A stretch of 55,778 bases of DNA, the filler included, from Sphacelaria rigidula (lineage: Eukaryota): NCBI GenBank assembly GCA_964200075.2. It is 6 parts of 6 records of this genome, joined end to end, with 100 filler letters (N's around TTAATTAATTAA, not from the genome) between each part and the next. Parts side by side here need not be neighbours in the genome. Positions count along the whole stretch, not along the records: positions 1 to 9,214 come from CAXNAA020009029.1; positions 9,315 to 18,528 come from CAXNAA020009030.1; positions 18,629 to 27,841 come from CAXNAA020009031.1; positions 27,942 to 37,154 come from CAXNAA020009032.1; positions 37,255 to 46,466 come from CAXNAA020009033.1; positions 46,567 to 55,778 come from CAXNAA020009034.1. One strand, given 5' to 3'. A program made the translations under genes and the position numbers. The notes beneath the pieces were generated by a model. That model was not told where the DNA came from. It ran no database searches and saw only the letters and a program-made list of their open reading frames with translations. Positions 3,146 through 46,930 of the stretch are shown piece by piece. Within the stretch, counting starts at the first letter, position 1. Each line of letters starts with the position of its first letter.

Positions 3146-4278
3146 ATCAGAGCTATACTATCGTAGAAGTTCACGTTTTTCGCCAAAATGTTTCCTGGGG
3201 TGTTGGACGGGTCACTTTGAGAATCGGCATCATTTTATGTTGAGATAAAGTGAAAATGATGGTGATTCACGAAAACTCCCCTGCGCACATTTCAATGTCC
3301 AGTCGCCGCATATTTCGATTGCACAGTAGGCGATAAAAAATAAAGGCAAGCACCGCAGAAGGAAGGTGCAGCGCCTGTCTTATTAGCACTTTTTTTTCGC
3401 CGGTCTGATAGGCCCACCGCATTTGTGTTCCTCGAATGCTTCAACTCAAAGTTATAATTAGCGACGCGCGGAGAAGAATGAAACGAGGGAAGAAAAAAAA
3501 AACGATCGGAAACATGCAGTCGAAAGGCACGACGCCGCACGTGACTCCTATCTTACAGACCATCACGCCAGATAATACCTGTTTACAGGGTCATGCAAAC
3601 TCCATCTAACTCATTCTCAGCTACCACCGCAACCCTGCAGCATGGAGCACGAGTTGAGCACAGGGATAGATACAATACAGTAGTTGAGTGCGCTTTGATT
3701 ATTATTTTAATTGGCGAAACCTTGCGTATCTACTCTCATGGTAGGCAGTTGGGACGGAACTGCGTGGCACGGTGGGTATACCCGAGTTACGTGCACGCTC
3801 ATGGACAAGGCAGACAGTACAAAGCTGCACGTTGCTGAAGTTCTTTTCAGATCGCATTGAAAGCAGAGAGGAATGATAGTCGTAGGCTGTCTGCACTGCA
3901 CGTTGCCTGCTTCTCCTTTATATCTTCCTGCACGAAACACACCCACGCACTCAACACACCCTTCTTGGAAGCAGTGCAGACAGTACAGACTGCCTGTGCT
4001 GCACACGAGACCATGTGCCGTTTCACGCCTTTCACTGTAGGTTTTGGATCGAATGCTTGAAAATCCATCTGCACCCAACTGCATTAAAACGAGAAACTCT
4101 CACTGAGATCGATTCCACCGCCCCATTTTCTTGATCGAAAAAAAAGTGCCAAGACAGGCCCTCACACCATGCTCAACAGTAGAGAGCGAACATGTCGTGG
4201 GTACACAAAAATCGACGACGAGGGAAAGCGACTGCTGACCCCTTCTCGCGATAAAAAGTAAAGGCAAGCGCTGCAGTG

Positions 4279-4327
4279 AAAACAAATAACAAGGATCAAG
4301 CTCCTGTGTGACCCCGGCTGGTGCGCG

Positions 4328-4371
<44 letters not shown>

Positions 4372-4383
4372 GAAAGGTGTAGC
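4279..4383 (+). repeat. Short dispersed repeat, copy 2, with expanded (CA)n(TA)n microsatellite
   Basis: Matches 3066-3145. The internal CA/TA run is expanded at 4328-4369. Confidence 0.8.
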
Positions 4384-4594
4384 GTTTTTCAATTCCAACA
4401 ATATCACACCCATACCGTATCTTCCTTCTCCTACTCCTCTCATGTAAATGAGTTTCATTACCAATACGCATATCATATCCTCGGCTTAATCTTCTGGTAG
4501 GAGTCATTACCTTCACCCTCTCCCTTCCATATTTTATTCTTTTTCACGCCTATCATGGAGGACGGGGCCGCCGATAGGCGGCCCCGTCCGATCC

Positions 4595-4810
4595 TTGTAA
4601 TATATACAATATATTCTATATTAAGGAGAAGAAGCATATGTGTAATATAGACCAATAATATTCACCTATATTATGGTAAATAATATATGAAATATAGTAT
4701 ATGAAACATAATATATGACATGTAATATATTGAATATAGTATATGATATGTAATATATGAAATATAATATACGAAATAATATATTACATACAATATATCA
4801 TGTATAATGT
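4595..4810. repeat. AT-rich low-complexity tract
   Basis: Degenerate TAATATATGA-like units. Confidence 0.75.
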
Positions 4811-5035
4811 ACAAGGATCTCTACTGTCTACGGCAGCTGACCGCATTCGCCAACGCTTCGGCGGGAAATCAGGGGACACACGGCTGGGAGTCTCCCCCCT
4901 CCCCTCAAAAACTCGAATTTTCCATATTGGGGTCTACGTGTCCCAAAAGATATTTTCAACAGACCATTGGCGTGGCCCAGATTAAATCACATACAATTTG
5001 AACATCAATTCGTTTCCATAGGAACATTTAGTTCT

Positions 5036-5249
5036 GACACTCTCTACGATAGCCCCCCCAAAAAAGAGTGCACACTTTTGGGAGGCCAAATCTTCACGTA
5101 AATCGAAACGGGAAAGGCCGAGTACAACGAGAAGCTGGGAATTCCCGCGCTTGGGTTCGTTCTAGCCAATGNNNNNNNNNNCGCTGTATGGCCATTTTTT
5201 TCGTGACACTTTTAGCTGGTTTTGGGGGGGGGCTATCATAGAAAGTGTC
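5036..5249. mobile_element. Non-autonomous TIR element (MITE) with 4-bp TSD TTCT; spans a 10-N gap
   Basis: Left end GACACTCTCTACGATAGCCCCCCCAAAA; right end reverse-complement GACACTTTCTATGATAGCCCCCCCCCAAAA. TTCT at 5032-5035 and 5250-5253. A homologous copy lies inverted at about 40091-40325. Confidence 0.85.
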
Positions 5250-6042
5250 TTCTCACTTTCCGGTATCGCCTGTAATCACCAATCCTGGAGGATAAAGGGT
5301 TAATATTCCGAAGAATTAGTCGCTAGATATATAATCCATAATCAAACAAACATGATGTTGAACATTCTTTGACATTGCGGCGGCTTATTACCCTTGACTG
5401 GCATTCAACGTATTGAACGAAAAAACAGTGTTCGGCTGCAGTCTGTTTTATTTGATGCGGAATTGAAACGTGGTAAATGTGTAAAGACTATTTTTAATTC
5501 GTGACACTATAGTACAAGGGGTGGTGATTTTGTCACACCCATTACTTGATTGCTCTTTGAAGAAAATACGTCGTTAAGTACACTGACACTAGTCGTAGAG
5601 CTAACGACTCCGAATTCAGAAGTGTCCCACAACGTCACTTGTGTTAACCCGTCAACTTCTACGGTTTGCTATTTGTCGATAGGGTGCAGTTTGGCTGCAA
5701 GGGTGTCGCAGCGGTAGACACGTAATCGCATATTTCTTCCATTTTCCGAGCCCCGCCGCCCTTGCTATATACGTATATATGGTTGTGCATATCAATCCTT
5801 GCCCCGGGCTTTTTCATAGATTGTATTTTCGTCGGGCTCTTACATCGTGCTACGCTGCACCGGTGCACGCAAGTTCCTTGGACCTAGACTGCGTGCATCC
5901 TTGGGGGTAGGCCGTGTTTTATCGGGACACAACATCATTCCAAAATCACCCCGGCCTGTGACTGGCCACGGCGATACATCGCTCCTGAAACTGACAACAT
6001 TTCAATATTAGATGACATTTTCGCCAAACTATGAGTAATAAG

Positions 6043-6337
6043 GTTTTCGTGAGATTGAGAGTAGAGCGCTGATTGAGACTTGCGTTGATCATTCGCTTTA
6101 TCTCAGCCATTTTGACATTCCGTGTCTGCTTTTCTTTACCTTTATCACTTGCGTGTGCTTAAACCCCACACGGCGATTTCCTACTCAGGGAATTCAAGGG
6201 CCTCAGTGGCAAGCTACTACGGAAAGCATACTGGGCCTTGATGAGGGGCATTTCGGGACTGAAACGATTTATTCACTTACGCTTATTGACCGCTTTTCAT
6301 TCTCAATCGTATCCTCTACTCTCAATCTCACGAAAAC
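6043..6337. mobile_element. MITE/foldback element with 24-bp perfect terminal inverted repeat
   Basis: GTTTTCGTGAGATTGAGAGTAGAG at 6043 versus CTCTACTCTCAATCTCACGAAAAC ending 6337. The right arm recurs at 14441-14530 and 43886-43971. No clear TSD. Confidence 0.75.
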
Positions 6338-7982
6338 ACTGTTGAGTCTAGCATGCCATTGAGAGCGAGCTTCCAGTAGGATCGCGTTGTTACACTGATG
6401 TATTTCATTCATTGATGAAACACCAACATGTCTAAATGTCAAGTGCAATGATGCTGATTTACCATCACAATATCTGCTTTCGTCATCCTGTCCTGTTCAA
6501 TGACGGAACTGGACGTATTTACGTCGAATCTCCACGAGAGCCGACCTCTCACGTCTTCAGCTCGCCTTGTGCTCTGTGAATCCGCAGCGTACTACCTCTC
6601 ACGTGAAAACATCCTCGTCCGAAGACAAAGACCAAGCGTGTCTCTGAATCGCTGTTCTTCCATCTGATGGTAACAGCCATGGCCAACGTTTCCGCTTTCT
6701 TCCTTCCCTCTCCGATGGTACAGCTCCCAAAATAAAAACTGTTCCAGGTACATATCATGGACATTTCTTTCTCGACTCACAGTGCTGTTAAAGAAAACAC
6801 ATGAGTGACCACGTCCCAGCAAACATGCTGCGGTATTGCCTTCAAAACCCAAAGCTACCGTCGAAGTGTTTTACTTTACTGAGCCGGAAAACGGAGTGCC
6901 TTCCCCACGAACGTAACTTTCCAAGATGACGTGCCCGCGTCAAAGCGTTTGACCCGCCCAAGGAAGAAAATAACGTTTCGGTGTGATGCACTTGAGCCTT
7001 TTCCCCCAACACACGTACCCATATCCCCAAACATCCCCAATATTTCCAAAAGCACAACAAGTGCCGACCCTTGCACGCAACATGCATACACATATATATA
7101 TATATATACTGAACCCGAGACCTCGCGTCCACCTCGTGCGACTCAAGTTCACGAGGGAGACAAGCCGTCTCTCACGTTGCCCCTATCTCTGATAATAATA
7201 ATTAGCCATAGAGAGTCATCATCAGCAGCAACAGCGAAAACGACCACTGCTTCTAGACAAAAACTAGTACAAATAAATCAAGCACGAACCAGATGTTTAT
7301 ATATTGTGTATATACTACATTCCAACATTCTGTCATAAGTGCTGGACCCACGCTCCAACGTACATGTGATCAATCTTTTGCCCTCAATCGTTCTACGCGA
7401 CTCTTCGAGTTCAATTGTCGGAGACCCAAATTACTTCAAACCCCGTCCCCCAGCATCGCTGTCATTCCCTATCCCTTCATCTTGGCAAGCTCTCTCGGAC
7501 CCCTCCTTCTACACACCGTCCACTGTAGCTCAGGTCGCAACCACTGGCGCAATTCACCCCCGTGTAATGTTTGTTCCTCAATTCCCTCCCACCCTTTAGG
7601 CATCTTTGTTTGCCGACTTGAACCCATTCGCGTCGCTTTCTCCGTCTCTTCTTCCTCCCCCGCCTCACCTCCCTCCATCCCTTCAACTATTGCTACTACG
7701 GCTAGGCACTGTTCATCGGCATACAAATCCGATAAAAAGAGCAGGGAGCTCTGAGCCGATATAACGAACCACCTCCCAGAAGGCAACACCCGACAAATTA
7801 TACTGCTGAACGTTGAGTTCTATTGTACTATGAGTTGGTGACGCTCGCGGGGGTGAGGGGGAAACAGGGGGAGGAACCGCTTTCTGGTCGTGATGTCATC
7901 CACTACTGTTGTGTAGCAGGAAGCACACCAAGTGTTGTTGTTGATTGTCGTGTTATGTGTAAACCTGCACTGCCTTCATTAC

Positions 7983-8888
7983 CCGTGGTAAATGTAGTTC
8001 TGAGGAGTTTCTGGGTTGAACATTCGAGGACCCACCCCACACACCCCACCCTGCTGCATGAGCGGCTGAGGTGAGATCCAATGCCCCATCTTCGAATTGA
8101 CCTGCTGGTAGTTGGGCTGTTGGTCTTGGAGAATGTTGGGAATCCGATGAGGTTGCCTGAAGATGTATTCAGGCTGGTTCTGGGGAAACTGGCTCTGGTT
8201 CTGGAGAACCTGAGTCTGGTTCTGAGGAAGCTGGTTCTGGATCTGGGCGACTTGAATCTGGTTCTGAGGGCACTGGGTTTGGCTCTGGGGGAACTGGGTT
8301 TGGCTGTTGGGAATCTGGTTCTGGCTCTGGGGGAACTGGCTCTGACCCTGAGGGAACTGGCTCTGACTCTGAGGGAACTGGTTCTGGGTCTGGGGAATCT
8401 GACTCTGGTCCTGAGAGAAATGGTTTGGGCTCTGGGGGAACTGGTTCTGGGTCTGGGGAAACTGGCTCTGGTTCGGAGGAGCCTGGTTCTGGGTCTGGGG
8501 GAAATAAATGTGGTTCTGAGGATACTGGTTCTGGCTCAGAGGCTGGGGCTGACACTGGTGTTGAGGGAACTGATTTTGAGCTGACTGGTTCGGAGGGAAC
8601 TGGCTCTGATTGTGAGGGCATTGGTTTTGGTTCTGGGGGAAACGGTTCTGGATCTGGGGAACCTGAATCGGGATCTGGGGAACCTGGATCGGGATCTGGG
8701 GAACCTGGATCGGAATCTGGGGAACCTGGATCGGAATCTGAAGAACCTGGATCGGGATCTGGGGAACCTGGTTCTGGTTCTGGGAGAACTGATGCGCAAA
8801 CTGGTTCTGAGGGAACTGGCTCTGAGGGATCTGGTTCTGGGGCTGGAGCTGGGGCTGGGGCTGGTTCTCGCGACCCAGTCCGTTGTCA
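7983..8888 (-). CDS. Putative internal exon encoding a Q/N/P-rich heptad-repeat low-complexity protein
   Basis: Acceptor TTCTATATTGCAG (AG at 8890-8889) and donor GG|GTAATG (GT at 7982-7981) bracket 906 bp, phase 2-2, with no stops. Translation is dominated by units such as QNQFPQS and QIPIQVP. Confidence 0.5.
8170..8868. repeat. Degenerate 21-bp tandem repeat (coding minisatellite)
   Basis: Roughly 30 units resembling CTGGTTCTGGGGGAACTGGCT, with some 15-bp variants. Confidence 0.9.
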
Positions 8889-9214
8889 CTGCAATATAGA
8901 ACAGAGGGCACGCGCGTACAAATATTACACCAAGAAAAGGGCGGGGCGGTCAGCAGGGGGATAGTACCAAATGAATACTAGAGAGCTCAATCCTTCAAAT
9001 TGCATGATATCACAACCATCGCAGGGAATATGTACCGCTACGTAACCTAGCTGTGGTTAAATGGTCATCTATATATTAACACGCGACGCAACCCCGAAGC
9101 ACATCTCACGGACGGGGGTAAGGAAAATGGGGGGGGGGGGGGGGGGGAAATTTTCCCCTTTTGTGCTATTTTTAAAACCCGAACTGGGCGAAATATTGGT
9201 TGGAGCAGCCCGCG

Positions 9215-9314
9215 NNNNNNNNNNNNNNNNNNNNNNNNNNNNNNNNNNNNNNNNNNNNTTAATTAATTAANNNNNNNNNNNNNNNNNNNNNNNNNNNNNN
9301 NNNNNNNNNNNNNN
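9215..9314. other. Artificial contig spacer (44N-TTAATTAATTAA-44N)
   Basis: Identical 100-bp structure occurs five times. The 12-mer puts stop codons in all six frames. Confidence 0.98.
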
Positions 9315-9545
9315 CGGGTCTTCCGTGCAAGAGAGAAATGCCACTTCAACCCCATATTTTGTATGAACCCCAAAGTTTCAAATCGGCTGTTTTGTGTGCT
9401 TTGAGCCGAAATGCACCCACTGGGTTGTAGCCCTTTACAGCGCACATGCCGCGCTCAGCAGGAAAAGTCGGATCATGGCCTATTATTTCTTCTGCAGGTT
9501 TTGAGGGTCGGCTTGAAATGCACGTGGGAATAAGGATCAACCCCG

Positions 9546-9792
9546 GAGTGATGCTGCGGTAGGGTCTGCACTTTTTGGGCCAAAACCGGCCTGAGAGCCA
9601 CGAGAGTCTTGTTCCATCGAGAACATTGTGACCTTCGCCCGAACCTTAGACTGGAATTATCTCATGGGTCATGGATGCATGTTCCACCCTGAGGCTTTCA
9701 GAACTGTGGTGAGAGTCAAAGGCGATTCGACATGCCTAAATCCCGATTTCCTCTAAGGCCGCAAAAGCGCAGACCCTATCGCAGCATCACTC
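9546..9792. mobile_element. 247-bp MITE with ~35-bp TIRs, GAG...CTC termini and 4-bp TSD CCCG
   Basis: GAGTGATGCTGCGGTAGGGTCTGCACTTTTTGGGCC versus right-end reverse-complement GAGTGATGCTGCGATAGGGTCTGCGCTTTTGCGGCC. CCCG at 9542-9545 and 9793-9796. Confidence 0.88.
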
Positions 9793-14780: not shown

Positions 14781-16766
14781 CATACTCGTACGAAGTATAT
14801 TTTATACTTTCGACTTGCGTCACCTCCGGGAGGTCCGTACCAACCTCCCGAAGGGGAACTTTGTATTTATATATATATATATATATCTTTTTTCTACTGC
14901 CATAAGAGGGTGTGTGTGTACAGGAACGATGTAATAATCGTGTCAAGTATCAGTTTCGTCGATGAAAGACCTCGTCACTGAAGCGGAGTATCAATCGCAG
15001 AAGCAGTTGTTCCTCGTACCGAGAGGTAAAGGCTACGGGTAGGTAGACACGGTTCCCCACAGAGTGGGGTTGTGCACATATCAGCGGCATACCTGCCTGC
15101 AACATATACGCCCGGCCCGCGAAAGTACTCTACAACGTAACATATCTTCGGTAACAAAGCAGCAGTATGGTACGCCACGGCAAGTACGTACGATAAGAGT
15201 GTGAATGTAAATACCTTACTGGGGTATATTAAATACATACGATCAATCATCATAGCCCTGGTCAAAGTGAGATAAGATGCGCGATATTTAGTCACACCTA
15301 AGAGTTAGTCCTGCTATGTAAGCAAAAGACGTACAGGAATTACCCAACCGAGAAAACCACTAAATGGTGTTCAACGCGGACACATACCGTCCTCGATGTA
15401 CCGTGCTTCCGCGTCCCGGCCTGGTGGAGGATGAACGGTCGTCATCGCATTTAGCGCCGTTTCTCTCGTGATGACACATATACCCAGGACAAGGGTGTGG
15501 TGTGAAGGTATTAAGGTGTAAGGTTAGCACAAGTTGGGAGCACGGAGTACATGGAAATAAGAGCATGCCCTGGTTTTGTCACTCCTGTCGCGTATCGACT
15601 CCTTCCGTGTCGAGCCCTGAATTCGATGATTCAACTTGCCACATAAGTAGGGGTACTAGAAGGATTCCATCATCCAATGCAACAAGTACAGACAATTAAT
15701 TTAGTAAGCGAGGCAATGTTTGTACGTGGAATATGCACTCGAAGCCAACGAAACAGCACAACGGTTGGGTCTTGGGTAGAACTATACTTTCCACAAAGGT
15801 ACCAAAGTGGACGGTCAGGTTCGGCCGGCTCAATGTGGAAGATGTGCCGACATCATGTAAAATCAGCGCTACTATGTGTACAATAAAATTCGGGACGCGT
15901 ACTGCAATCGTGTAGTGTCAAAAGAGTACGGCACTGGCGGCACATGCGAAAGAAATCCCAGAATACAAAATATGAGAAACTCAAGTAAGATTGTGTATTT
16001 TCAAGGACAAAAACGGTCGCCGCAAAAATGAAAAATGCCCCACACCCATGTAACTTTTTATCTTTTTGGACCCTCCAGGGCACACGAGGCCATTTATCTA
16101 CACCCCAAAATGCCTCCGGAGAGATGCGCGGCCCTTGAGAGGCAAAAACAAGCCCCCGGGGGCATTTAATCCCTCTGGAGGAAAAGATCGTTGAGTGGTC
16201 GCTGCGATACCACCCGCCCCCCAAGAAAAACCCCCGAACCGTGTTCAGAAATCCCCTCTTCAGAGAATACTGCAGGGCGTGCAGAAAAAGCACTTCCTGA
16301 AATCCTCTTTCGAAAAGGGATTTCCGGACACCTTCAACGGGAACATACATGTCTGGTTGACAGGGACGCACGTGCAAAGGGTTACTAAACAACCGAACGC
16401 AATCGGAGCTATTCCGCGGAATAACACGATTTAGTTTGTTTTACATGGGAAAAAAAAAATAAAAAAACTCCTGTGTTGATCTTCCTCCTCTGTGCCCCCG
16501 GCTGATGCGCCCACACATACCGGAAGGTGTAGATCGGCGTCCAGAATAGATGGGACGACAACACACGAACACACACCATATGTGCAGACGGTAGAGTTTA
16601 TCCGTTCAAGGCTTCGAAAACCACAACGCTGCAGTCACCACATTTCTTGTTGTCTTGAAGATCGCATTCCGTTGGAAGCGATGATGAAATCAACACCACT
16701 GGTCTCAAAACAGGAAGCGATGATGAAACATGATGGAACATACATATGGATCATACCCTATACATG

Positions 16767-16768
<2 letters not shown>

Positions 16769-25320: not shown

Positions 25321-26658
25321 CTACCCCGGGCACCCATTTGCCCTTGCCCAGCTGGCGATATGGTGATACCCCTGCTGAGAAGCCCACTCACACGTCCTCT
25401 GATCCCATGGGCAGCCATACATTCTTGCCCACTGCAGCACCTCTAGATGCCTTCCAAGCGCCGCCCAGCAGCAGGTATCTTCGTTCCACTCGCACCCGTT
25501 TTGCTTGACCCATTGCAGGATGTCGATGTTTCCCACTGCCGCCGCGGAGCGACAAGTATCAGTGTCCCACGCACAGCCGTTAACAACGGCCCACTGAATC
25601 ACATGTAGGTGACCCCTCGCCGCCGCGAGGCTGCACAGGTTCGCGTCCCACTCGCACCCATACTTGCGCGCCCACTGCAGGACTTCGAGATGCCCCCCTG
25701 CCGCCGCGCCCCCACAAGTGCCGCTATTCCAGGGACACCCGTTCTGACGGACCCAATGTAAGACATGTAGGTGTCCTCTCATGGCCGCGACCGTACAGGT
25801 GCCCTCATTCCAAGGACAACCGTGTTGTCTAGCCCACCGGATCACGTCCAAATGTCCCTGTTCAGCCGCTTGAAGGCATGTCCACTCCCCCCAAGGACAC
25901 CCGTTCGTTCGGGCCCACTGAAGAATATCCAGATGCCCGCCGCCCGCCGATTGGCTACATGTTTCCTCGTCCCACGGACATCCGTTCGCCCTCGCCCACT
26001 CGAGGATCCTCATGTGGCCACCCGCGGCCGCGGCTGCACAGGTGCTCGCATCCCAGGGGCACCCGTTCTCCCTCACCCACTGCAGCATGTCCAGGTGTCC
26101 GTTCTTCGCCGCGTAAGTGCATGTGAAAACGCTCCACGGGCATCCGTTTTCCCTCGCCCAGCGAAGCACGTCGAAGTGCTTCTCAGCTGCTGCTCTCGCG
26201 CATGTAAAGTGGTCCCAGGGACAGCCGTTTTCCCTCGACCACATCAGTACGTCCAGGTGCCCCCCCGCCGCCGCGCTCGAACAGGTGTTGGCATCCCACG
26301 AGCAGCCGTTCGCGCGCGCGTACTGGAGTACCGCGAGATGACCGGCCTCCGCCGCGCGGCTGCAGGTCGTCTCGTCCCAGCTACAGTCATGCGCCCGCGC
26401 GCACCGCATGAGCTGTACGTTTCCGAACCCCGCCACGCTGTTGCAAATACCGTAGCCGCGCTGCAAGCCCCAGTCGAAGCAATGAAGTAGTTGCCAGGGT
26501 GAGGTGTGCGCCGTGACGGCCCTCGTTAGGGTCGGACGCTGGCCCCACGCGCTTCGCCACCTCCGGGAGACCAGAGCAAAGAAAAGGTACTGCTCGTCAT
26601 CAACTAGGTCTGCCACGCTTTTGATGATATCTTCTTGACCCAGGGGGTTGTTGCTCAT
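25321..26658 (-). CDS. Ankyrin-like repeat protein (14 x 27-aa TCxxAAxxGHLxxLxWARxNGCPWD repeats) with N-terminal F-box-like segment; intronless
   Basis: Complete 445-aa ATG-to-TAG ORF. Repeats counted directly. The N-terminus EDIIKSVADLVDDEQYLFFALVSRRWRSAW resembles an F-box (VSRRW). Confidence 0.92.
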   Translation of the reverse strand: MSNNPLGQEDIIKSVADLVDDEQYLFFALVSRRWRSAWGQRPTLTRAVTAHTSPWQLLHCFDWGLQRGYGICNSVAGFGNVQLMRCARAHDCSWDETTCSRAAEAGHLAVLQYARANGCSWDANTCSSAAAGGHLDVLMWSRENGCPWDHFTCARAAAEKHFDVLRWARENGCPWSVFTCTYAAKNGHLDMLQWVRENGCPWDASTCAAAAAGGHMRILEWARANGCPWDEETCSQSAGGGHLDILQWARTNGCPWGEWTCLQAAEQGHLDVIRWARQHGCPWNEGTCTVAAMRGHLHVLHWVRQNGCPWNSGTCGGAAAGGHLEVLQWARKYGCEWDANLCSLAAARGHLHVIQWAVVNGCAWDTDTCRSAAAVGNIDILQWVKQNGCEWNEDTCCWAALGRHLEVLQWARMYGCPWDQRTCEWASQQGYHHIASWARANGCPG

Positions 26659-27752
26659 GCTCTAGCGTTTGACTAGAGGTGCCCAACAACACGGCTGCAG
26701 GATCGTTGGTTGTTTTCTGGTGCTTTTGGCGGGGCGGGGGGAAAGCGAGGCACATGTGTGAGGACGGGATGATGCTTTCGTTAGGGCTTGTTTACAAGTC
26801 ATGCACTTCAAATTTAGGAGAGTGATGACTGACATGAACTCTAAGCAGCGGAGGATAATAATGCACATCAAGGAGGTAATATAAGGCCCAACGTGTTGTG
26901 CATTTTATAAATGTTACGGGAACTGCGCATGCAGTGATAATGGAAGAGCGGCGAAGAGCTTACTTTGACTATCGAAACGATTGCAGTTTGATGAATGTTC
27001 CACCTAGTAGGGCAGCGTTTGTCGACACAATGCCATCGCAGGGTTTACATATACAGCCACAGCAGCTAACAGCCGAGATAAATGTTTCGACGAGTCAGAG
27101 TGGCACTGCAAGGGCTATCCTTGCATGATTTTGTTGACATAGATCTCGTGGCTGCACGTAGCCCTGGTCTCGTGTATAGCCCAGGACGACATAGATTCAG
27201 GCTTTGCTGGAGAGAGCGGGTAAATCACGAACGGGTAATGGACCAACTATATGTTCATGAAAAAATTGCAGCTGCCGCCCCTCGTGAATGACATGGTACA
27301 ATGATCAGCTTGGGCTTCTTCCGTGAGTTCAAATTTCGACTGGGATGAGTTTTTGGTAACCAGCATCGTGCATAAGTCTGAGTTAATGAGTAAGCCAAAA
27401 CAAGATTGACGAGGGACGACGGGCTACAGGGATGCTGATCCACACACTGCTCGACAATAAATTGTCGGAAGACTATTGCTGGGGTAGAGATTGGTTGATC
27501 CCTTGAAACTACCGACATGTTCTGCGGAAGCGGGGTCAAAGTATGCCCCCCTGCCCCCCCCCAAAACGGAGCGTACCGTAGCTTGCAAACGGTTACCTCA
27601 CATGCGTGCAATGCCAGGAGAGAGCACTATCCCAAAGGTTTGGTCGTACCAGGATACAGTAGTGGGCGGTCTAACTATTTAGAGGGATTTGGGGGTTTTC
27701 CTCGCGTACTACTCTTCGATAGAACTGGAAATTGCTAGCGTCGGTAGGTTTT

Positions 27753-27841
27753 GAGTCATCCTACGATAGGGGGGGGGGTATTTGGTTCCACGAAAAAAGA
27801 TGCTCAAAAGTGTGTCAGACATCCTTCCACACTTGCGTTGC
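27753..27841 (+). mobile_element. Terminus of a TIR element truncated by the contig end (same family as 37081-37154)
   Basis: GAGTCATCCTACGATAG(G)nTATTTGGTTCCACGAAAAAAGA...GTGTCAGACATCCTT is nearly identical to 37081-37154. Confidence 0.75.
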
Positions 27842-27941: not shown

Positions 27942-28769
27942 TGGATGCGCATTTTTTTGCATTCAACAGTCACCGTGATGAGCGGTGGCAAGCAGAACAA
28001 ATTTGGACAATCTTTGAGAAACCAAGAAATTACGGATTCTGCATACTTCTGACGCTGACTGCTGTAGCCGTAAAATTCTATGCTACTAGAAACACGGAAC
28101 ACATAAATATTTCTAGCGTTGTGATTTTGGTCTGACGTCATACGATAATTGGAGGTAGCGGTTTGGAGTTGAGTTTTCCCTTTCGCGCGGGACAAACAGA
28201 TCTGCTTTTGTGGAAGTCTCCGGACCACCCCCGTAGCTTGGTAGACCGGGGCAACTGCGGCAGCTAGTGTACGTCAAACGTAACCCAAGGTTCAACACCA
28301 ATCGAACGCACGCGCTTCATTTCAGGGAGCGTCCAAGAGCGCGCCCCCTTCATTAGTTTAGCCGCCATCTGTCAGTCAATTCATGCTGCGGATGTCCGAA
28401 TATCCGCAAAATTTTGCAGTACGTGAATTTCTGCGGATAAAGCCGTTCGAAAACATAATCCGCTTCGGAGCGTTTTGTTTTGAAATGGAGCACACCTCTA
28501 CTCGGAAAGTGCGGCAGAAGTCGTACTTGTAAAGTACCTTCTGTTGTCATCATTCAGTGCATCTGAGGGCTAAACCCGTTCAGGGGGTGTACCCCGCCTT
28601 CGCAGACCTCTCCCACAACGAGCTCTTCCTAAAATCGAGGGAGCGGACACTGGATACCATCGCCGCTATTTGTGTCACCTGGGGGGGTTACTCCCCCTCA
28701 AAAAAGGTGTGCTGCCTCGTATATTGCCCCCTCTTCCCTCCCCTCCTCATCCTCCCCCATGTTGGGGAA

Positions 28770-28847
28770 GGAGTAGGAACGGTGCTCGGTTTCGAAAGCG
28801 ATGGGTGGCCGATGATCGAGTGACTAAGGCAAGCAACAAATAAGTAT
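28770..28847 (+). repeat. ~80-bp dispersed repeat (also at 40013-40090, 46400-46466 and inverted within 46835-46930)
   Basis: GGAGTAGGAACGGTGCTC...TCGAAAG...TGACTAAGGCAAGCAACAAATRAGTA. Confidence 0.85.
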
Positions 28848-29054: not shown

Positions 29055-32000
29055 AGATGGTATCAGGTGGTCAACACAGTCGCACACTCTAATAGTACTG
29101 TCGTGGGAACATGGTATATACTGTCAGACCATCTTGGGCGGCTAAGTTTTCCAGGCTGCAGCACAGCTCAGTCCACCAATTTATAAAATCAAAATTCAAT
29201 TGGGGGGGGGAGGGAGAAGCGGGGGGGGGGGGGGTACTCATCATCATGCATATCGTAGTCATAGGACCATTGATCTCGCAGCCCTACAAAGCTGGGACGG
29301 AGCACGCCGGGTTTTAACCGGACCAGGCTCGCACGCAATCACCAAGTGCGAAGCGCCGTGGTGTGTTCGGCGAGTCGCATGAAAAGGGAGAAGGGAGGGG
29401 TGGGGGGGTCGCAGAACGGCAATGGCAGAAAGGATAATTTTGGCGCCAGCGGGTCGCCAGCAAATTGCTCAACTTACGAGAGGTACATTTGCGGTCATCA
29501 GCTCTTGCTGCAGGATTGCAACTGTTCAAGTGAATGAAACGAAAAACCGCTTGGAGCTCATACTGCCACTTGGTCGAATGATTCGTTGAAGAATTTTTTC
29601 GGAAATTCAAGATATTGAAATAACGCTAACAACAGGTCAAGGCGCGAGGGTTCCGAAGGCCAAGTATGCGTTGGGAGACCTCAATCGGCGCCTGGACAAA
29701 GCGCTACATAGGAGTACTTGGGACTGCCAGCCCCACTAAGGATCCGAACATGGGCATTTACTTACGTTAATATAAAGTAATACATTTTTGCGAAAGTTCC
29801 AATCGAGCAAGTCGTGGTATCTACCGACTACTCGGACCTTCATGAATACAGCAAATCAGACAAGGATCTCTTCGATTTCTTTCTCTAGACCTGATTTGAT
29901 TTATCGACGTTGCGGAGCTTGATCTTCATTTGCGGGAAATATGGAGGGTGCGATTCCCGTCGCTCCGGGCGATGCAGTGAGTGATTTACAGTACACGTGC
30001 ATCATCATTGATCCGGGTCGGCACCGCGTCCAAGCTATTATCCACTTCTGTATTTTGTATCGCGCAACAAATCATGCAGATCCCTGAGCACCTCCGTAGG
30101 TGTTACAATAGCACCGCCACTTACTGTTGGAGCGAAATCATTGTGCCAATGAAGAATCAACAGCCGCATAGTGGGGCGCAGTTTTGCAGTGCAGCCGGCC
30201 GCCTTAGCAGAAATTACAGAGCAAAACACACCCATCGACTTGCTATTTTTCACACAGCGATTATGGTGCCCCTGTGTCCGTGCAGTAAATACTACTGTCT
30301 ACCTGGCTGATAAAGGTGCCCAGTCGTCCCCGATGCTGATGGATGTTCCTACGAGTACAAGTATGGCGGTCGGTTTGTTGAGCCTTTGTTGACAAACCCC
30401 ATGTCACCACGAACAGCACAGGAGCACGCGAGCGATGTTGTTGTACGCTCGGGTGTCTGCAACTGCAGATATGCACACACTTCCGAACAAGCTACCACAA
30501 CGCTTGGTACAGTTATCACCCCCAACTCCTTGAAATCACTTCGTGGGCACCTTCCACATGAACCCTTGTGCATGCTTGCGTGTACAGCATACCGTACCGT
30601 ACGAGTCCGGTACGGCAACGTACTAATTTACAGTACAGTATCGAACTATCCACACTGCAGCTCCCAGCGTATACACTACGTTTTCCACTGTGGGTTTTGC
30701 TTGCCTGGTGAAGGTGATCATGGCTTATCCCGAAGGTAGAGACGGGCACTCTGCCGATGGTGGTGGATCGCCTTCTGTACTGGTTGCACAAGCAAGCCCT
30801 GAGAGCACTGACTTGCAGTTTCTCCTGAGAGGACAGTCCTGCGGTCGTGCTTCGCCACAACGGTCGTGAGCCTCCGCTGTTGTTTTCCTCTTTGCCTGCC
30901 TTTATGTGGAGAAGACTTCCTGTCTCCTGCAAGTTTTCTCGCCGAAACGAAGGTAACTGAACTAGACTATGTACGAATTCTCTTGCCTGCTATGTAGTGT
31001 ACCTCCTCTAATCGTCTGGATACGGGTAATTAGCTTCCAAGCAGGGACAGCACAAGGGATGTAGGGTTCCTTTGTATCGGCGTTTTTCACTTGCATATAT
31101 GATAAAATGCAATCCATCAGTTCCCGTTGTTCGTGCACGGCAGATTTACCTAACCTTTCCTCACTATACTATAGTCTCTACTATATTTTGGCTTCATTAT
31201 ATAACGAAAATATTTTTTTCATGCGCAAGAATGTTAAAAAAATGTGAAACTACCTTTTGATGCTCCAGATCTTGTCCATATCTCTAACAATATATTAGTA
31301 TAGGTACAGGTATTAGGACCGCGGGTCTGACTGAAAGCAGACATTTCGAGTCAAATTGCAAGAGGACGTCCTGGCTGGCGTTGGTCGACGCAAGGTTGAG
31401 GTCGTGTGTCTCTTGCCGTCCACATCACCGCTGAAAGTGAGTACTACTACAGTATGGAGTTCTTGATTCTCATATTTAGCCGTCGAATCCTTCTGTCAAG
31501 CACAGTACCGCACAGTACAGCTGTAGTCACCGTCCTGTGCTTCTGCTGTCGTGGTTAGTCCAACCAACGTCAACCCCGCCCCACCGACTGACCCGTGCGG
31601 GGCAGGCCAGCACGGGCAGAGCGCCTCAGCAACTGGCATATGGCGTGTCATCTATTGATTGGCCATCAAATATTGCCGTGAGGGGGGGTGAGCGTTCCTT
31701 CCCTGCTCCGTTGTACTTGCTACCCCACACCGCGTTGTATGCGGATGTAGAGTGTCATGATATACGCAAGGTTGGACAGTCACGACGTCAGGCGGACACG
31801 TTCTCATGTTCGAACATGCGTGGGTCTGCCGACCCGTTGCCCGTGGCGCACCTTCAACCCTGTCCCCACGGTATCGTATCTATTCATCAGAGAAGCTGCT
31901 GAACACTTTCCAACATTTATCGTGCAGTATCGCAGAGTTGTGTGTTTGAGTGCGTGTTGTGTGGTACGACACGGGCAGCGGCGGGTCACGTGGTAGATTA

Positions 32001-37050: not shown

Positions 37051-37080
37051 ATGGATATCCTCTGTCGTCTATTGCTGTCC

Positions 37081-37154
37081 AAGTCATCCTACGATAGGGG
37101 GGGGGGTATTTGGTTGCACGAAAAAAGAGGCTCATAATTGTGTCAGACATCCTT
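37081..37154 (+). mobile_element. Terminus of a TIR element truncated by the contig end
   Basis: AAGTCATCCTACGATAG(G)nTATTTGG... matches 27753-27826. Confidence 0.75.
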
Positions 37155-39910: not shown

Positions 39911-40325
39911 GAGTTTTTCTACGATAGCCCCGGGATATAAGACATGTAAGCGGGTTTTGTGTGATGTATGAAAGAACTGCGATGATTGCGCACATGTTTA
40001 ATGTATCGATCAGGAGTAGGAACGGTGCTCCGTCTCGAGAGAGATACATTGCCAATGGTCAAATGACTACGGTAAGCAACAAGTAAGTATGCCCCCCCCC
40101 AAACCAGCCCAAAACTGTCACAACGAGAACGATCATAATGTCCATGATGCTTGGTTCCAGGCCGCGTGAAGCGCCGTACATACGCGACATCGACGGGAAA
40201 TGAACCCCTGCTTGAGAAGTCTCAGCTGCTCGTTGTGCTCAACTCTTCTCATTTTGATTTACTTGTAGATTTTACTCGCTGGAACGAGCCACTTTTGAGG
40301 AGGGGGGCTATCATGGAAAAGTGTC
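39911..40325 (-). mobile_element. Composite MITE: inverted copy of the 5036-5249 family with ~160 bp of extra sequence inside one TIR
   Basis: 40325 back to 40190 aligns to 5036-5171, and 40091-40135 aligns to the reverse complement of about 5187-5233. Outer end GAGTTTTTCTACGATAGCCCC at 39911. Flanks TGCG and TGCA form an imperfect 4-bp TSD. Confidence 0.7.
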
Positions 40326-40329
40326 TGCA

Positions 40330-41310
40330 ACGGCATGGAATATATGATTTTGACAGGGTAAGCTATTGTTCAGGGTGTGCATCGAACACACACCGCCGGG
40401 GAATGACGAGATCCGAGGCGGGATCTATGGCGGAACAAAATTCCTTCCGGGCCTCATGATTCCCTGTTGTTGCGACTGATTTTTCCTCGATGATCCTAGT
40501 GCACTCGTGAGGTAGTTCTCAGTCTTCGTGTGTGTCTCGGAGGAATTCGACCACCCTGCACAGTGGTGAGGGCGTCATGTAGATACCCCAACACCGTCCA
40601 CGAGCACATCGACTTCGTAACAACTTGTAATTATCAAGCCAAGGGGAGAGGTATTACGAGATGCACTCACATATGTGGGAGGAATTGTGCACTCCCCCTC
40701 TCCCTGAAAGTTCGAGACTCGAAATGGTACTTCCAGTTGTGGGATCCCTGCTTGTGATTATAAACTGAACTTGGCCGAGAATTGTCAAAACTTACTTGTA
40801 AAGTGGCGTATGGACGTGAGGCATATTTCCACAGCCTGAAGATGTGGAAGCCACCACCCCTTGCAGATCATTCCAATGAAAGTGGAGCACGATGCACATC
40901 ATCCCAGGGTGAACGGCGTTTCGGAATGTTCGAAGATTCGTCATCAAGAAATTGTTGCCGCCTGTGGTACAAAGATTGTAGACGTCGGATAGCTCATGAG
41001 CAACGTGGACATTATTACTTCTTTGAGAACTGATGAGGATCATGAGCTAGCTCATTTGGCCACTATTTCCGTATTAGCTCCCGAAAGCGATGGACGCCGA
41101 TCACGTGGTGTAACGCGTCGGCTTCTTGGACACTGCTGTCACGTGTTTTGAGGTTTCGTAGAAATGATCTGGGAGTTCTCTTCGATTAGATATCAGGTAG
41201 TTCACGAGCTGTCCGGCATGTGAAGGGTTGTCTTTGACGGTACGGACCTCGCGTCCTTGTGCAAATCGCTGCGGAAATGGGATGTGACGATCGTCGCCGG
41301 GTCGCATCGT
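40330..41310 (-). pseudogene. Possible decayed Sola-like DDE transposase
   Basis: Ordered motifs GGNNFLMTNL...LQVSFDNS...VLGYLHDALTTVQGGRI resemble the GxNxxxTxL...LQxDN...VGHTHxxxDxxFGxI pattern. Many stops and frameshifts; recognition by eye. Confidence 0.35.
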
Positions 41311-41859
41311 GACCGTTATTCTTCGGATTTCTCCGCTTTTGTGTTCAGTGTTTCATGTGTAATCTTTTCGAAATATTGGTGTTCGTGCCACTTCGCATCC
41401 CCAGTTTGGTCTATAATGGGGGGGCAGCGAGGGCATCTTGAGTTGGATTTCTGCGGGGTGGCGTGCGCTTCACGTCAAATTTTGACATATGGAAGTTATC
41501 TGCCTTTATCTGCATACGTTTAGGTTTATCAAGATGTGACGAGCAGATCATTTCTACTTTTTTTGTGTAGTATTTTTTCTCTCGTCGCTGCAACGTGTGT
41601 CCTCTCTCGGGTAGGTGTGCTCACACCTTGGTGGTCAGAGAGTGGTTGACGGGGCGTTCTCGGAAATTTATCATTTTGAATCCCCGCAAACCCCAACCCT
41701 GTCTGTGATGCTGTCCTTCACCCTTCACCAAGGCATACCTGAACTATTGAGCAAGGCAGGGGCAGAGGTTCTCTTGACAAAATCATCTCGCCGTCTCGCG
41801 TTGAACCCATACCCACCTCCACCCCCTTCACTTTCCTGATATATCTGCACTTCCTGCAG

Positions 41860-42572
41860 GCCCCCATCGCTCAGTCTCACGCATCCCACATACTAGACAA
41901 CAGCCCCGCATCCGCAGCCGCCACTGGCGGGGGAGACGGCCGATCCTCACCTCATCTCTCCAACGGAGAAGTTTCTTCATCCCCCTCCGGTGGGGGCGGA
42001 GCCGGCCCGGACTATCGCAGCAAACTCAATGGCACACCCGGGGTTTCAAGTGCTGCAGTGGGCAGCGGGGATGAACAGCAGGGTAACTCTGAGGGCGGAT
42101 CCTCCAGCTTGTCATCCCGAGTGCAGGCAGCCGCCGGCGGTGTGGCAGCCATGGGCAATGGTCCTCAACGATCTGCTTCGCCCCACGGGTTTCCCGACGG
42201 GGTGTCCGGTGGTGGTGCTGGCGGCGGGGGTGTAGCTGCTAGTGCTGGTGCATTTGATATTCCTCATGGCGGGGTCGGAGGAGGGAGTGGTGACGGCCAT
42301 CATCCACTCCATGGTCAACAGCAGCAGCATCAGCAGCAGCAGCAGCAGCAGCATTTTGTGGCGCAGAATCGGCATTCGGCGGATGGATACGTCGGTCGGG
42401 GTCCTGGGGGTGACGGACTTGTGTCGTCGATGAGTGCGCTGTCGTTGGGAAGTGATGGAGGCGGTGGTGGCGCCGGCGGTGCAGCGGGCACCAAGGCGTT
42501 GTTGCAGTATGGCGGGGGGGGTGGTGGGAACAGATTGGATATGTACGGGAACCACATGGTGGACGGGTCGAG
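41860..42572 (+). CDS. Exon A of a Gly/Gln/Ser-rich low-complexity protein (possibly a Pumilio-family N-terminal region)
   Basis: Acceptor TTCCTGCAG; open frame APIAQSH...polyQ...LVSSMSALSLG...MVDGS; donor AG|GTGCGT (phase 2). Confidence 0.75.
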
Positions 42573-43535
42573 GTGCGTGTCGGCGTTTTTTTTTTTCGAG
42601 AGAGAAAACATGGGCAGACAGATGAAATCGACGGAATTGAAGGAGCTTGCTCCGTTGAACGTAGGCGGCTCTTGTTGTGTTGGATATTTTGTGTCTTCCG
42701 CTGAATGTTCAATTGGGTTCGTGGGACTTGGCTGATGGATGCTCGTGGATATTCGGCGTTGCACGCACCATCCTAAGATACTGGCAAAACGTACTCAAAG
42801 CGTCATCACTCTCGGATATCCTCAAGCTGGCCAATTGTAGTGTGTTTGCCGTCTGACATCCAACGTTGGACGTCGTTCGGGTCATGCGTTCATCTGAAGG
42901 TGCTCTCTCTGCCATGCTCAGCGGAAAATACGTGGAGAATTAGCTGGGAACGCAGAATGCTGAGACGTTGTCTTCTCTTTTCGTCGCGGGAGATATTTAC
43001 ATGATTTGTGTCCCGTTCTGTCATCAGTATTCCTCAAGGGCATCCAGTCGGGAGCAATTTTAAACGTGCATACGGTGCCGGTGCCGGGAATCAAGAATGA
43101 GAGGACGGTTTTCGGCCTCGAAAACGTACATGAAATGCCCAGACAAGGTACAGGAATCAGGGAAGTAGCAGCCGTCACGCTGGGCGGGTGATAATGCATC
43201 CAGAACACTGACGGCACCCTCTCGGATAATCGTACTTCCACATACTCTTTCCTTGCCTGTTTTCCCGGACGAGCCGCATAACTCGGAAGGGGGGCAACGC
43301 TACATATATGTATATATATATATGTTCCAAAAACAACGGAAATGAACTCCAAACGATATCAATTTCGGCCTTGACGTTGCGAGCCTCGACGAGGGGCTCC
43401 CCAAACCTTGGAGACGATGCACGTGCATTCCTTGTCTCTTATTTGTCGTTCACATGTTCGATGTCTGCTGCTGCTGCTGCTGCTGCTGCTTCTGCTTCTG
43501 CTGCTGCTTCTGCTTCTGCTGCCACCGGACACCAG

Positions 43536-43692
43536 GGGCGGAGGTGGGCATGGTATCATGCCACAGTCACCCTACAACGCACCGCAAATGTCACCGTATG
43601 GTGGAGCCCAAGTGCCCCAGGTGGCGTTAATGGGTGGCGTACCACCGTTGACGCCGGAGATGCATCCGTCCAGCATGATGGGGTACCAGCTG
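43536..43692 (+). CDS. Exon B of the same gene
   Basis: Acceptor CACCAG after a CTG-rich tract; phase 2 in; GGGGHGIMPQSPYNAPQM...MMGYQL; donor GTGAGA (phase 0). Confidence 0.78.
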
Positions 43693-43885
43693 GTGAGATG
43701 GAGACTCTCGAGTTGGTCGGGTAGGACTTTTATTGCTTGCTCTAAATTTTCCCTTTTTCATTTTCATGTGCTTTTTTCGCCTCTGGCACTGTCGTATGCA
43801 CACAGCTGCACGTCGATATCCTACTTTGGGATATCGAAGGCGTGACAAGCTACTTCAGGAAGCAGATGTGAGCCCCGGATAGACG

Positions 43886-43971
43886 ATTTCGGAACTGAAA
43901 CTATTTCATTCATCAGTTGATCGCTTCTCAATAATGATCGTATTCCTAGACTCTGAATCGCACGAGAACAT
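43886..43971 (+). repeat. Diverged intronic copy of the 6043-6337 element arm
   Basis: ATTTCGGAACTGAAAC...ATCGTATTCCTAGACTCTGAATCGCACGAGAACAT. Confidence 0.65.
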
Positions 43972-44321
43972 TTTTCATGATGGATTTTCAGATGGAGGGT
44001 GGGTTCTGATGGGCCTGTCTGTTTTCACATCATTGTTCCGTTTCAGCATGCGTGATGGACCAGGATTTGATGGTACATCGTGCGAGTCCGGAGGAATAAG
44101 ATTGATGATGTTGATCTTGTGCGAGCATTTAACCGTGGCACTTTGATCGATCTAATCCTGAACAAAAAAAATTGCGGTTGAATTTCGATGCAATCGGCTG
44201 TGCCCACTCTCGTCCCACCCCTTCATCCACCATTGCTCGTTCCTAACCTCCTCGTGACACTGTGCACTACCCCCTCCTTGTCATCCTCACCATTTTTTTT
44301 GTCTCACGACATACTGGACAG

Positions 44322-44534
44322 GATCCACGGCACTTGGTCCAACTGCCCCCACCTGACCCCCGATTCGATGCGAGAATGCCCAGCGATCGCGGCAGCCTGG
44401 GTGGAGGTGGAGGCGGGACGGGGATGGGTGGCGCTGACCCCGCGTCGCACATGCGCGGTGGTGGCGGAGACCCTCGAATGGGGGGGTCCGGAGCAGGGGC
44501 TTCGGATGGTTCACCGTACTACCCTGGACAACAG
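44322..44534 (+). CDS. Exon C of the same gene
   Basis: Acceptor GACAG; 71 codons DPRHLVQL...SPYYPGQQ; donor CAG|GTTGCT; phase 0-0. Confidence 0.75.
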
Positions 44535-45380
44535 GTTGCTCTTTGGTTGACAGGAATAAAGTAGAAAGAGAGAGCTGCTGTGCCTGGTGGGTTAGGAGTA
44601 GTACATGACAGGGAGGTACACTAGAAGGTTGCTGTTCGAGGTGCGCGAGCCAGGAGTATTTTAAAAACGTCATCTCTCGAGGAAACGTTTCGACCAGCCC
44701 AAAGACGAGCTGTCCTTCATTGCCGGTTTTGTTTGACTCATTGGCGAGATGATTGGTGCATTTCGAGCCGAACAATCTTGGTACGATGCAGCTCACCCTT
44801 TGTGCAACCGCCGAACACATCACGGCACATTGCTTCGCGCTAGGTCATTGCGGGCCTGGTGCGGCGAAAACCTGGCGTGGTCCGTTCTGGCTTTGTAGTG
44901 ACGCGAGGTCAAAAGTCTTACGACAGTCGTGAAAAATTATGAGTACACCCCTCGGCTTCCCTCCCCCACCCAGCCGACTAACGCTTTGCGGCATGTAAAA
45001 TGTGAATGTTTTCTTCAAAGCGTGCTTGATACAGATAATGCAGACGTTTCCACGTCGGCAGCAACAGCACCAGCAGTACCACAACTCTCACCTGCGCCCC
45101 CGACTGTACCTCTGTGCTTCTCTTCCGTGAAATGGTCTCGGAGCCCAGCGACAGGCAAAATCCCAAACTTGGTCGGTTGTCTTGTGGTGCATGCATGCAC
45201 GCACTGTCGCGTGTTGAACACCTCAACACTACGCTGCGGTCCCGCGCCCAGCCTTGCCCTCTCCCCCTGCTTCCTTTCGGAAAGGATGTGTGTCAGTGGT
45301 CGAATGATCGATGGAAGACAGAGAACAAATGAATACGACCTCCCCCCCGCTTATCTCCACACGCGCATCTTCGTTACCAG

Positions 45381-45951
45381 GGCTACGTAGACCCGCGTTA
45401 TCGGCGCGTGCTCCAATCCCCGCGTGGAGCCGCAGCGTACGCTGACCCCATCATGTACCAACAAGACCACCAACCACAGCAGCAACAGCTGGCATCGCCC
45501 ATGCTAGGCTCTCGTAGAGTTCAACACCAGGATAACGGTATAAGCAGCAGCGGAGCAACGGGGGCTGGCTACGGATACGCGAGCAATGGCGGCGGCGGAA
45601 GGGGAGGCCGCGGTCGGGTTTCGGGTGGTGGTGGTGGAGGGCACCTTGATCAGGGGCTCATGTCATCCCCTCGCGCAGGTCCAACCGGTGGTGGTGGCGG
45701 AGGGGGTGGAGGAAGGGACCCGTACTATGGGGCCGGGGTAGGGAGCGGAGGTCGGGGTTACAATGCCCTCGCGGGCGGCGATGTGAGGCTTGGGGGTGGT
45801 GGTGGCGGGGGGAGTGGCGGAGGAAGTGCTCGGTATGGAGGAGGGAGGCCGATGGGTGTCGGTGGGGCAGATGATATGGGAGACATGCACCGTGGGGTTG
45901 GTGACATGCGAGATATGGGCAGGGGGGGAAACGGAGACGGAATGATGCGAG
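45381..45951 (+). CDS. Exon D of the same gene (RGG/Gly-rich)
   Basis: Acceptor TTACCAG; GYVDPRYRRVLQSPRG...GDMHRGVGDMRDMGRG...MMR; donor G|GTAAGG (phase 1). Confidence 0.8.
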
Positions 45952-46354
45952 GTAAGGGGTAATGACGAGTCGGAGAGGGGAGACGGGATAGGAGTTTAGA
46001 CGCGTAGAGTTTGTGCAGGAGACATGAAAGCGTGGAGCAGTAGCATGTTCGCCGGCTTGATGAGAGTGCAAAGGACATGCGAAAGTTGATTTTTTGTATT
46101 TGGAGTTGATTCGAATTGTCCCTGAAAACCTAGAGAACATGGACTGAGGATGACACGGCGACATCACAGCATTAACTCAGAGCTCACGGAATTCCCGAAT
46201 ATGCGGTATGGGCTGCTTCGATATGCTGCCCTCCCCCCCCCATCCACGTTGAGTAATTTCTGGCCGTCCGATATGCATTGGCCCCTCACCAGCTTTCCAC
46301 TTTTTCATCGAAATGAAACTATGTTTTATTCAAATCCATGGTATTATGTCGCAG

Positions 46355-46443
46355 CTGACATGCATCGCGGGGGTGGACACGCCATCGACGGAGACATGCG
46401 CTCCGTCTCGAAAGGGATGCGTGGTCAATGGTCAAATGACTAA
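46355..46443 (+). CDS. Exon E of the same gene, running into a dispersed repeat that supplies a stop codon
   Basis: Acceptor GTCGCAG; phase 1 gives ADMHRGGGHAIDGDMR (echoing DMHRG of exon D), then repeat-derived SVSKGMRGQWSND-stop. Confidence 0.6.
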
Positions 46444-46466
46444 GGCAAGCAACAAATGAGTACGGC

Positions 46467-46566
46467 NNNNNNNNNNNNNNNNNNNNNNNNNNNNNNNNNN
46501 NNNNNNNNNNTTAATTAATTAANNNNNNNNNNNNNNNNNNNNNNNNNNNNNNNNNNNNNNNNNNNN
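46467..46566. other. Artificial contig spacer
   Basis: 44N-TTAATTAATTAA-44N. Confidence 0.98.
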
Positions 46567-46834
46567 GTGTCACCATGTATAACTACGTAGTACGATCATC
46601 CCCATTGTGCGGAGTCGAGGTTCTCCCACGCCGCACAACATGATCTAGCTCGACTACCATCATGGTTACCGCAGGAAAAACGCAAGCGCGCGAGTAAAAA
46701 GAAACGGCGACCTGGTTGCCTAGCTTACGCAGTAAGTGGCGTGTTTGATAGCGTCATCGCCAACCGACGCCAACCCCATCGGGGTCCGCCCCTACAAAGC
46801 CGGGACGGAGCACGGCGGTTTTTCGCCAGACCAG

Positions 46835-46930
46835 GCTGTGATCTACGATATCGCAGGGGGGGGCGTACTCATTTATTGCTTGCCTTAGTCGTTTGACCAT
46901 TGACCACGCATCCCTTTCGAGACGGCACCG
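46835..46930 (-). mobile_element. Terminus plus ~70-bp subterminal segment of the dispersed repeat family, abutting another repeat (46788-46834, related to 29281-29328)
   Basis: GCTGTGATCTACGATATCGCAGGGGGGGGCGTACTC..., then the reverse complement of 46400-46466. Confidence 0.65.

Follow-up and report, generated by a model that had tools for sequence, protein, structure and literature searches.

Which elements, and which transposase, lie behind the terminal signal G-N7-CTRCGATAG that recurs in a 55,778-nucleotide stretch of the genome of the brown alga Sphacelaria rigidula (GCA_964200075.2)? This stretch, hereafter the window, consists of six contigs of about 9.2 kb each joined by spacers, and belongs to an assembly of 244 Mb in 27,214 contigs. 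We find that the signal marks the ends of MITEs (miniature inverted-repeat transposable elements) of high copy number, and we put at roughly 0.68 the probability that these are non-autonomous cut-and-paste elements moved in trans by a DDD transposase of the Sola2 type.

The end signal and the elements that carry it

Genome-wide there are 7,775 matches to G-N7-CTRCGATAG (3,859 + 3,916) compared to 590 (293 + 297) for the reversed pattern, which served as the control for motif counts in the same genome. When the first base is A, C or T (H-N7-CTRCGATAG), the count is 2,589 (1,298 + 1,291) against 2,587 (1,252 + 1,335) in the control, and because this version stays at control level the excess of the core sits entirely with a G exactly eight bases before it. 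The excess of exact ends, about 7,190, therefore implies at least about 3,600 elements, a figure to which CTRCGGTAG variants and mutated ends do not contribute. In the window itself six sites fit G-N7-CTRCGRTAG, compared to a mean of 0.24 and a maximum of 2 in 100 second-order Markov simulations. Motif ends that lack a following G/C run number 390 against 184 in the control, and are mainly variants of known families. The end signal is real and abundant beyond what the window shows, which bears out an initial annotation that had described a high-copy radiation of non-autonomous elements with a subterminal core at a fixed distance from the end.

Forty-one intact copies from fetched loci fall into five clusters, families A to E (n = 15, 14, 8, 2 and 2). 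Global alignments of the interiors give mean z scores of 16–34 within clusters and always below 6 between them, and local alignments of the consensus interiors give p values of 0.035–0.97 over the ten family pairs, none of them significant after correction. The earlier statement that interiors differ holds, and the families appear unrelated at the level of detectable similarity. Their consensus lengths nonetheless span only 11 bp (249, 252, 258, 247 and 254 bp), a uniformity not noted in the initial annotation, and 36 of 38 independent intact copies measure 242–260 bp in a set bounded at 235–280 bp. With no length filter, the first 100 genome matches listed for G-N7-CTRCGATAG contain 16 pairs that face inward; 14 of these lie 247–256 bp apart, and the remaining distances, 2,386 and 13,104 bp, seem to be chance pairings.

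The terminal inverted repeats (TIRs) are imperfect and about 25–36 bp long. Among 82 ends, a set partly selected by the motif with its G start included, so that the core figures are inflated, G stands at position 1 in 80, A at position 2 in 73 and T at position 7 in 76, with positions 9–17 almost invariant and position 3 being G in 54 and C in 25. A GA start was also counted, by eye, in 84 of the first 100 genome matches listed, taken without further selection. Positions 2–8 do not vary freely, as had first been supposed. The TIR is bipartite: after GA at the tip come six looser bases, a core at positions 9–17 that is nearly a palindrome (CTRCGRTAG, or CTA-NNN-TAG) and a G/C-rich extension, which past position 17 is a C- or G-run in families A and B and a common GG(G/T)..GCAC-like sequence in C, D and E.

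Insertion duplicates four bases of essentially any sequence. Of 64 candidate pairs, 38 independent two-ended copies remained once pairs outside 235–280 bp and one other (L026) had been set aside and a nested insertion present four times had been counted once. A 4-bp target-site duplication (TSD) is exact in 21 of these and present with at most one mismatch in 33, while exact repeats of 2, 3, 5, 6, 7, 8 and 9 bp are seen in 5, 2, 1, 1, 0, 1 and 0. The unfiltered 64 pairs give 24 exact duplications and 38 within one mismatch, compared to 0.75 exact on average when the pairing is shuffled. The 21 exact duplications represent 19 different sequences, with AWWT in two and TTAA in none, in agreement with the non-TTAA 4-bp duplication originally proposed. 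Empty paralogous sites, recovered for four of ten nested copies tested, confirm duplication on insertion: the overlap is exactly 4 bp at two loci (L115, with five empty paralogues, and L153, with one), 4–5 bp in a C-run at another, and 3 bp for an internally deleted copy. Short, non-coding, bounded by TIRs, flanked by a duplication of fixed length and present in high copy number, these elements are MITEs.

Target duplication at TTAA is characteristic of Sola3 and Kolobok. It is also given for piggyBac in PMC12477816. As TTAA occurs in none of the 21 exact duplications, all three were rejected. Ginger, Chapaev and Academ, whose termini are TGT, CAC or TAG, were rejected on the G start of 80 of the 82 ends.

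All nine terminus strings reported earlier from the window are present where they had been placed, and family alignments put at least one element on each of the six contigs. The copies are:

3150..3331, plus strand: family-E MITE, decayed and 3′-truncated, with terminus at 3150 and a GAG start, from global alignment to the family-E consensus
5036..5249, unstranded: two-ended family-A MITE with GACACTYT ends, C-run and TSD TTCT; the 214-bp span includes a 10-N assembly gap at 5172–5181
9546..9792, unstranded: two-ended family-D MITE of 247 bp, with an imperfect TIR of about 36 bp and TSD CCCG
27753..27841, plus strand: family-B MITE of which the left end remains, truncated where the contig stops (84% over 89 bp)
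37081..37154, plus strand: family-B MITE likewise reduced to its left end where the contig stops, with a mutation to A at the first base (91% over 67 bp)
39911..40325, unstranded: two-ended family-A MITE with TSD TGCG/TGCA; interior 40092–40325 is 75% identical to family A
46835..47183, unstranded: decayed family-B MITE, its left G-run interrupted by about 90 bp of a G/C-run-tailed repeat; no TSD
~47328–47546, minus strand: decayed family-A MITE with eroded ends (73% over 219 bp)
~49371–49618, minus strand: decayed family-B MITE (80% over 249 bp)

The last two are absent from the initial annotation, whose three duplications (TTCT, CCCG and TGCG/TGCA) are as it gave them. Two of its nine termini do not stand. 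The one at 3174 on the minus strand was rejected: the core had been read backwards, a misreading that we tie to its near-palindromic form, since the family-E interior lies to the right (3172–3331, 76% identity to the consensus over 161 bp) and the decayed end is at 3150 on the plus strand. The GCT start at 46835 is unreliable because this decayed end, lacking a TSD, overlaps another repeat, the first bases of the copy falling within an upstream copy of the G/C-run-tailed repeat. The copy at 39911–40325 carries about 160 bp of foreign insert in its left C-run (~39932–40091), partly a C-tailed repeat. Three further sites in the window (18082, 29258 and 42020) were rejected as ends of families A–E, having no match in a search of the window with the family consensus sequences.

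A Sola2-like transposase as candidate mobiliser

We sought a partner transposase by way of DUF7869 (PF25273) and of the motif HGK-x3-DG. A degenerate pattern for the latter gives 84 genome matches against 53 in the control, and two of the ten matches translated (on C15028 and C17308) encode a transposase core with the motif string DFQE..QDEVQ..HW..SDD..SDN..HFK..HGKS..DG.GG. Judged by eye, it agrees motif by motif with the Sola2 alignment in PMC3627910. There are 43 genome matches to this protein, in groups of about 80–100%, 63–72% and 42–50% identity, and 163 relatives in a representative library. Its named close relatives are Ectocarpus proteins only, CBJ32683.1 and CBJ33599.1 aligning at 26–47% identity in six to seven blocks (for CBJ32683.1, separate blocks spanning residues 77–864); these two are presumably members of the Sola2-1_Ec32 family. 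The copy on C15028 is frameshifted and hosts nested MITEs. A multi-copy and mostly broken Sola2-like transposase family is present in the genome, and we infer its partnership with the MITEs. The Sola2 lead of the initial annotation was right.

Pfam offered no convincing family for this transposase or for eight relatives, and ten distant homologues bear no informative names. Scans of metagenome and viral contigs, and a word-indexed search among longer proteins, found nothing, while an atlas feature search with the transposase led to unnamed eukaryotic clusters, one of which has DUF7869 in 21% of its members. PMC5199201 and PMC5751038 record that Sola transposases lacked a Pfam profile and that Sola2 MITEs exist in insects.

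The MITEs have the 4-bp duplication described for Sola2 in PMC3627910, where Sola2 ends read GAA, GAG, GTT and GAT; GGC is added by PMC12477816. A similar picture emerges for Sola2-1_Ec32 of the brown alga Ectocarpus (4.6 kb, 48 copies), which also has a 4-bp TSD, a G first and a short imperfect TIR (26 bp, against about 25–36 bp), and to which, on the assumption above, the Ectocarpus homologues of the transposase found here belong; unlike the MITEs it is autonomous and ends in GGCGG rather than GAGT or GACA (PMC12477816). The dictyostelid elements DFa-1/2/3 and PPa-1/4/5 resemble ours in their 4-bp TSD, in a G start with variable positions 2–3 and in the same transposase motifs, but they favour AT-rich AWWT targets (2 of 21 here), have 12–21-bp TIRs lacking CTRCGRTAG, measure several kilobases and carry Fanzor (PMC3627910). 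The insect Sola2 MITEs of iMITEdb, compared by their listing in PMC5199201, are likewise miniature, non-autonomous and assigned by TSD and TIR. TcMar-N1_Ec32 and other Ectocarpus MITEs are similar in being non-autonomous TIR elements of small size (about 217 bp) and high copy number, more numerous than the autonomous partner, but TcMar-N1_Ec32 belongs to another superfamily, with a TA duplication and CCGTA/CAG ends (PMC12477816).

The curated Ectocarpus table (PMC12477816) has no Sola2 MITE, and gives GAGT or GACA ends for none of its families, uncurated Ectocarpus families lying outside the comparison; a literature search, mostly of listings, found no description of families A–E and no paper on how Sola2 transposases recognise their ends. 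Judging by published descriptions, families A–E are probably new families of a known kind. Little is left of the earlier suggestion that atypical starts might point to an undescribed clade. The GAC start is genuine, being that of family A, one of the two largest, while GTG (3174) and GCT (46835) are artefacts; and GAC alone is no argument for such a clade, because published Sola2 ends already vary after the G. Sola2 termini are reported by Bao et al. 2009 to be 5′-GRG; families B–E fit this, and family A does not, nor do several of the published Sola2 ends.

The elements behave like a Sola2-type MITE system and probably are one; membership is something we infer from the TSD, the first base and co-occurrence, and not from a TIR common with an autonomous copy. 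The closest approach to such a copy is on C17308, where the contig end 5′ of the transposase begins CGATAG-GGTTTGC, identical at 12 of 13 positions to positions 12–24 of the family-D TIR, as would be expected for the TIR of a Sola2 element clipped by the assembly; this end is ambiguous.

Several observations weigh against the assignment. Among the Sola2 copies walked, no transposase-bearing element has a complete TIR of this type, the walks having ended at nested insertions or contig ends and not covered the 3′ ends, the 5′ end of the second subfamily or the 42–50% group. At C17308 itself, 89 bp in from the contig end there is a TIR-like stretch facing it, the match to the only other copy starts just past the TIR-like stretch (probably at that copy's own contig end), and a single contig, assembled from what is guessed to be an RNA run, extends 819 bases past the C17308 end, so that the core there may be a small nested remnant; four public runs mapped to this end gave no sequence beyond it. 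A TIR-like stretch near L219:560 was rejected as a Sola2 3′ end, a paralogue aligning straight through it. Leaving nested copies aside, the MITE interiors match no fetched Sola2 flank, and for that reason no MITE is a demonstrated deletion derivative. Finally, the Repbase rule for non-autonomous membership, as stated in PMC4455052, asks that positions 1–11 align to the autonomous end with at most one mismatch; in a comparison with published Sola2 ends, the MITEs align in this way to none of them.

The most serious competitor is that the same MITEs were moved by an undescribed or unrecognised lineage, or by several, with the Sola2 genes as bystanders. In its favour, the stretches walked yielded no physical connection of the TIR to a Sola2 gene, the GAGT and GACA termini belong to no curated Ectocarpus family (PMC12477816), the MITEs nest inside Sola2 copies as in any target, and families A and B diverge from C, D and E past position 17. 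Yet Sola2 of a related alga also combines an unbiased 4-bp TSD with short TIRs starting in G (PMC12477816), the genome holds dozens of Sola2-like copies, and one contig end places the core beside a Sola2 gene. We regard this explanation as unlikely, though it deserves to be kept in view.

Two other explanations fare considerably worse. Sola1-type (DUF7869) transposases are abundant, with 79 matches in the genome, many of these loci contain the MITEs, and Ectocarpus Sola1-1 also makes a 4-bp TSD (PMC12477816). However, in 60 fetched stretches around these matches no inward-facing motif pair encloses the gene, and where ends of DUF7869 elements could be located they are AACAG/ACACAG, like those of Ectocarpus Sola1-1 (AACCG), or TAGGGG in one family. 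Sola1-type elements also differ in having long TIRs and, in place of HGK, a catalytic motif of the GHT[HF] type; MITEs within them have empty paralogues and were inserted later. Mobilisation by Sola1 is thereby largely refuted for the DUF7869 families whose ends were seen and, with the ends of some families unresolved, is very improbable overall. Solo long terminal repeats (LTRs) of Ty3-type retrotransposons, or terminal-repeat retrotransposons in miniature, would account for both the 4-bp TSD and the uniform size of about 250 bp: Ectocarpus Gypsy elements have 4-bp TSDs, and several of them have LTRs of 231–298 bp (PMC12477816), and a Ty3 pol fragment lies at 2–2390 in the window. Such elements should have TG...CA ends, or a close variant, with only a short inverted repeat, whereas here the TIRs are 25–36 bp, G is the first base of 80 of 82 ends and TG opens none of them (the ends were selected to include a G start), and flanks look unique among non-nested copies, with no common internal region. 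We consider this origin barely credible, and the Sola2 assignment remains the one we prefer.

Some further observations concern the transposase genes themselves. On C15028 the Sola2 transposase has its C-terminal part in a 298-codon open frame (L217:758-1651), which extends beyond the end of the Ectocarpus homologue and shows about 70% DNA identity in the second subfamily. On C17308, at L218:274-412 and thus 5′ of the Sola2 gene, 137 bases are left out of a contig, with GT..AG at their ends on the strand opposite the transposase. This hints that the element, or the DNA next to it, has a second spliced transcript that is divergent; the run behind the contig is guessed to be RNA, and we do not use it as evidence of expression. 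The DUF7869 contigs (L096-L155) contain several multi-copy Sola1-type families of 5–8 kb with AACAG/ACACAG ends and many nested insertions, and one family (L143, L144, L147) begins TAGGGG.

Neighbouring repeats and genes

The window also carries a high-copy repeat of about 600–700 bp with G/C-run tails, often in tandem, for which a first look at the genome gave 2,254 candidates. Its window copies are:

28769–28847: G/C-run-tailed repeat
29236–29400: G/C-run-tailed repeat
40012–40091: G/C-run-tailed repeat
44790–44903: G/C-run-tailed repeat
46385–46466: G/C-run-tailed repeat
46567–46925: G/C-run-tailed repeat

This repeat inserts into the G/C run of MITE TIRs, also at L003, L005, L017, L018, L047 and L123. 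It was rejected as the interior of a long element, being a separate tandem repeat inserted into the run. By description alone it can be likened to RTEX-N1_Ec32, a C-rich-targeting element of Ectocarpus resembling a short interspersed element.

The Ty3-type pol fragment at 2–2390 (minus strand) contains an RNase H-like domain by Pfam, followed by what by eye is a likely integrase frame. Near it, 3050–3145 and 4250–4380 are related copies of another repeat, possibly LTR remnants, with a third, partial copy at 16478. An intact single-exon frame of 446 codons at 25321–26661 (minus strand) has a weak F-box match and 27-residue ankyrin repeats, and a Gln/Pro-rich open frame at 7979–8977 (minus strand) is made of a 21-bp tandem repeat.

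End recognition and element size

Bipartite ends occur in other DDE/D transposons. By analogy, a Sola2-type transposase would bind the 9-mer core, cut at the terminal G a fixed 8 bp from it, pair both ends and join them to a target cut with a 4-nt stagger; the interior would be mainly spacer, with about 250 bp favoured for end pairing or for amplification. The common length may reflect a preferred end-pairing distance, or else the families may all go back to a single old element, with interiors by now too diverged to be recognised as related. A more speculative proposal, which we hold to be doubtful, is that a single lineage reads only the bipartite end code (GA plus the near-palindromic 9-mer at a fixed distance) and acts as a ruler for about 250 bp, or some 24 helical turns, so that independent elements with unrelated interiors converged on 247–258 bp; the mobiliser may then represent a Sola2 clade peculiar to brown algae, an unrecognised transposase being the less likely choice.

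For annotation of this genome, masking and a provisional classification are now possible for at least about 3,600 copies, many of which lie where contigs break. With respect to mechanism, natural variation reveals the fixed positions of the end, namely 1, 2, 7 and 9–17. No new category of element is opened by these families; what remains unusual is that five unrelated interiors are confined to 247–258 bp. This makes a constraint on MITE size directly testable and, if the ruler proposal is true, would offer a natural test of what determines the size of MITEs.

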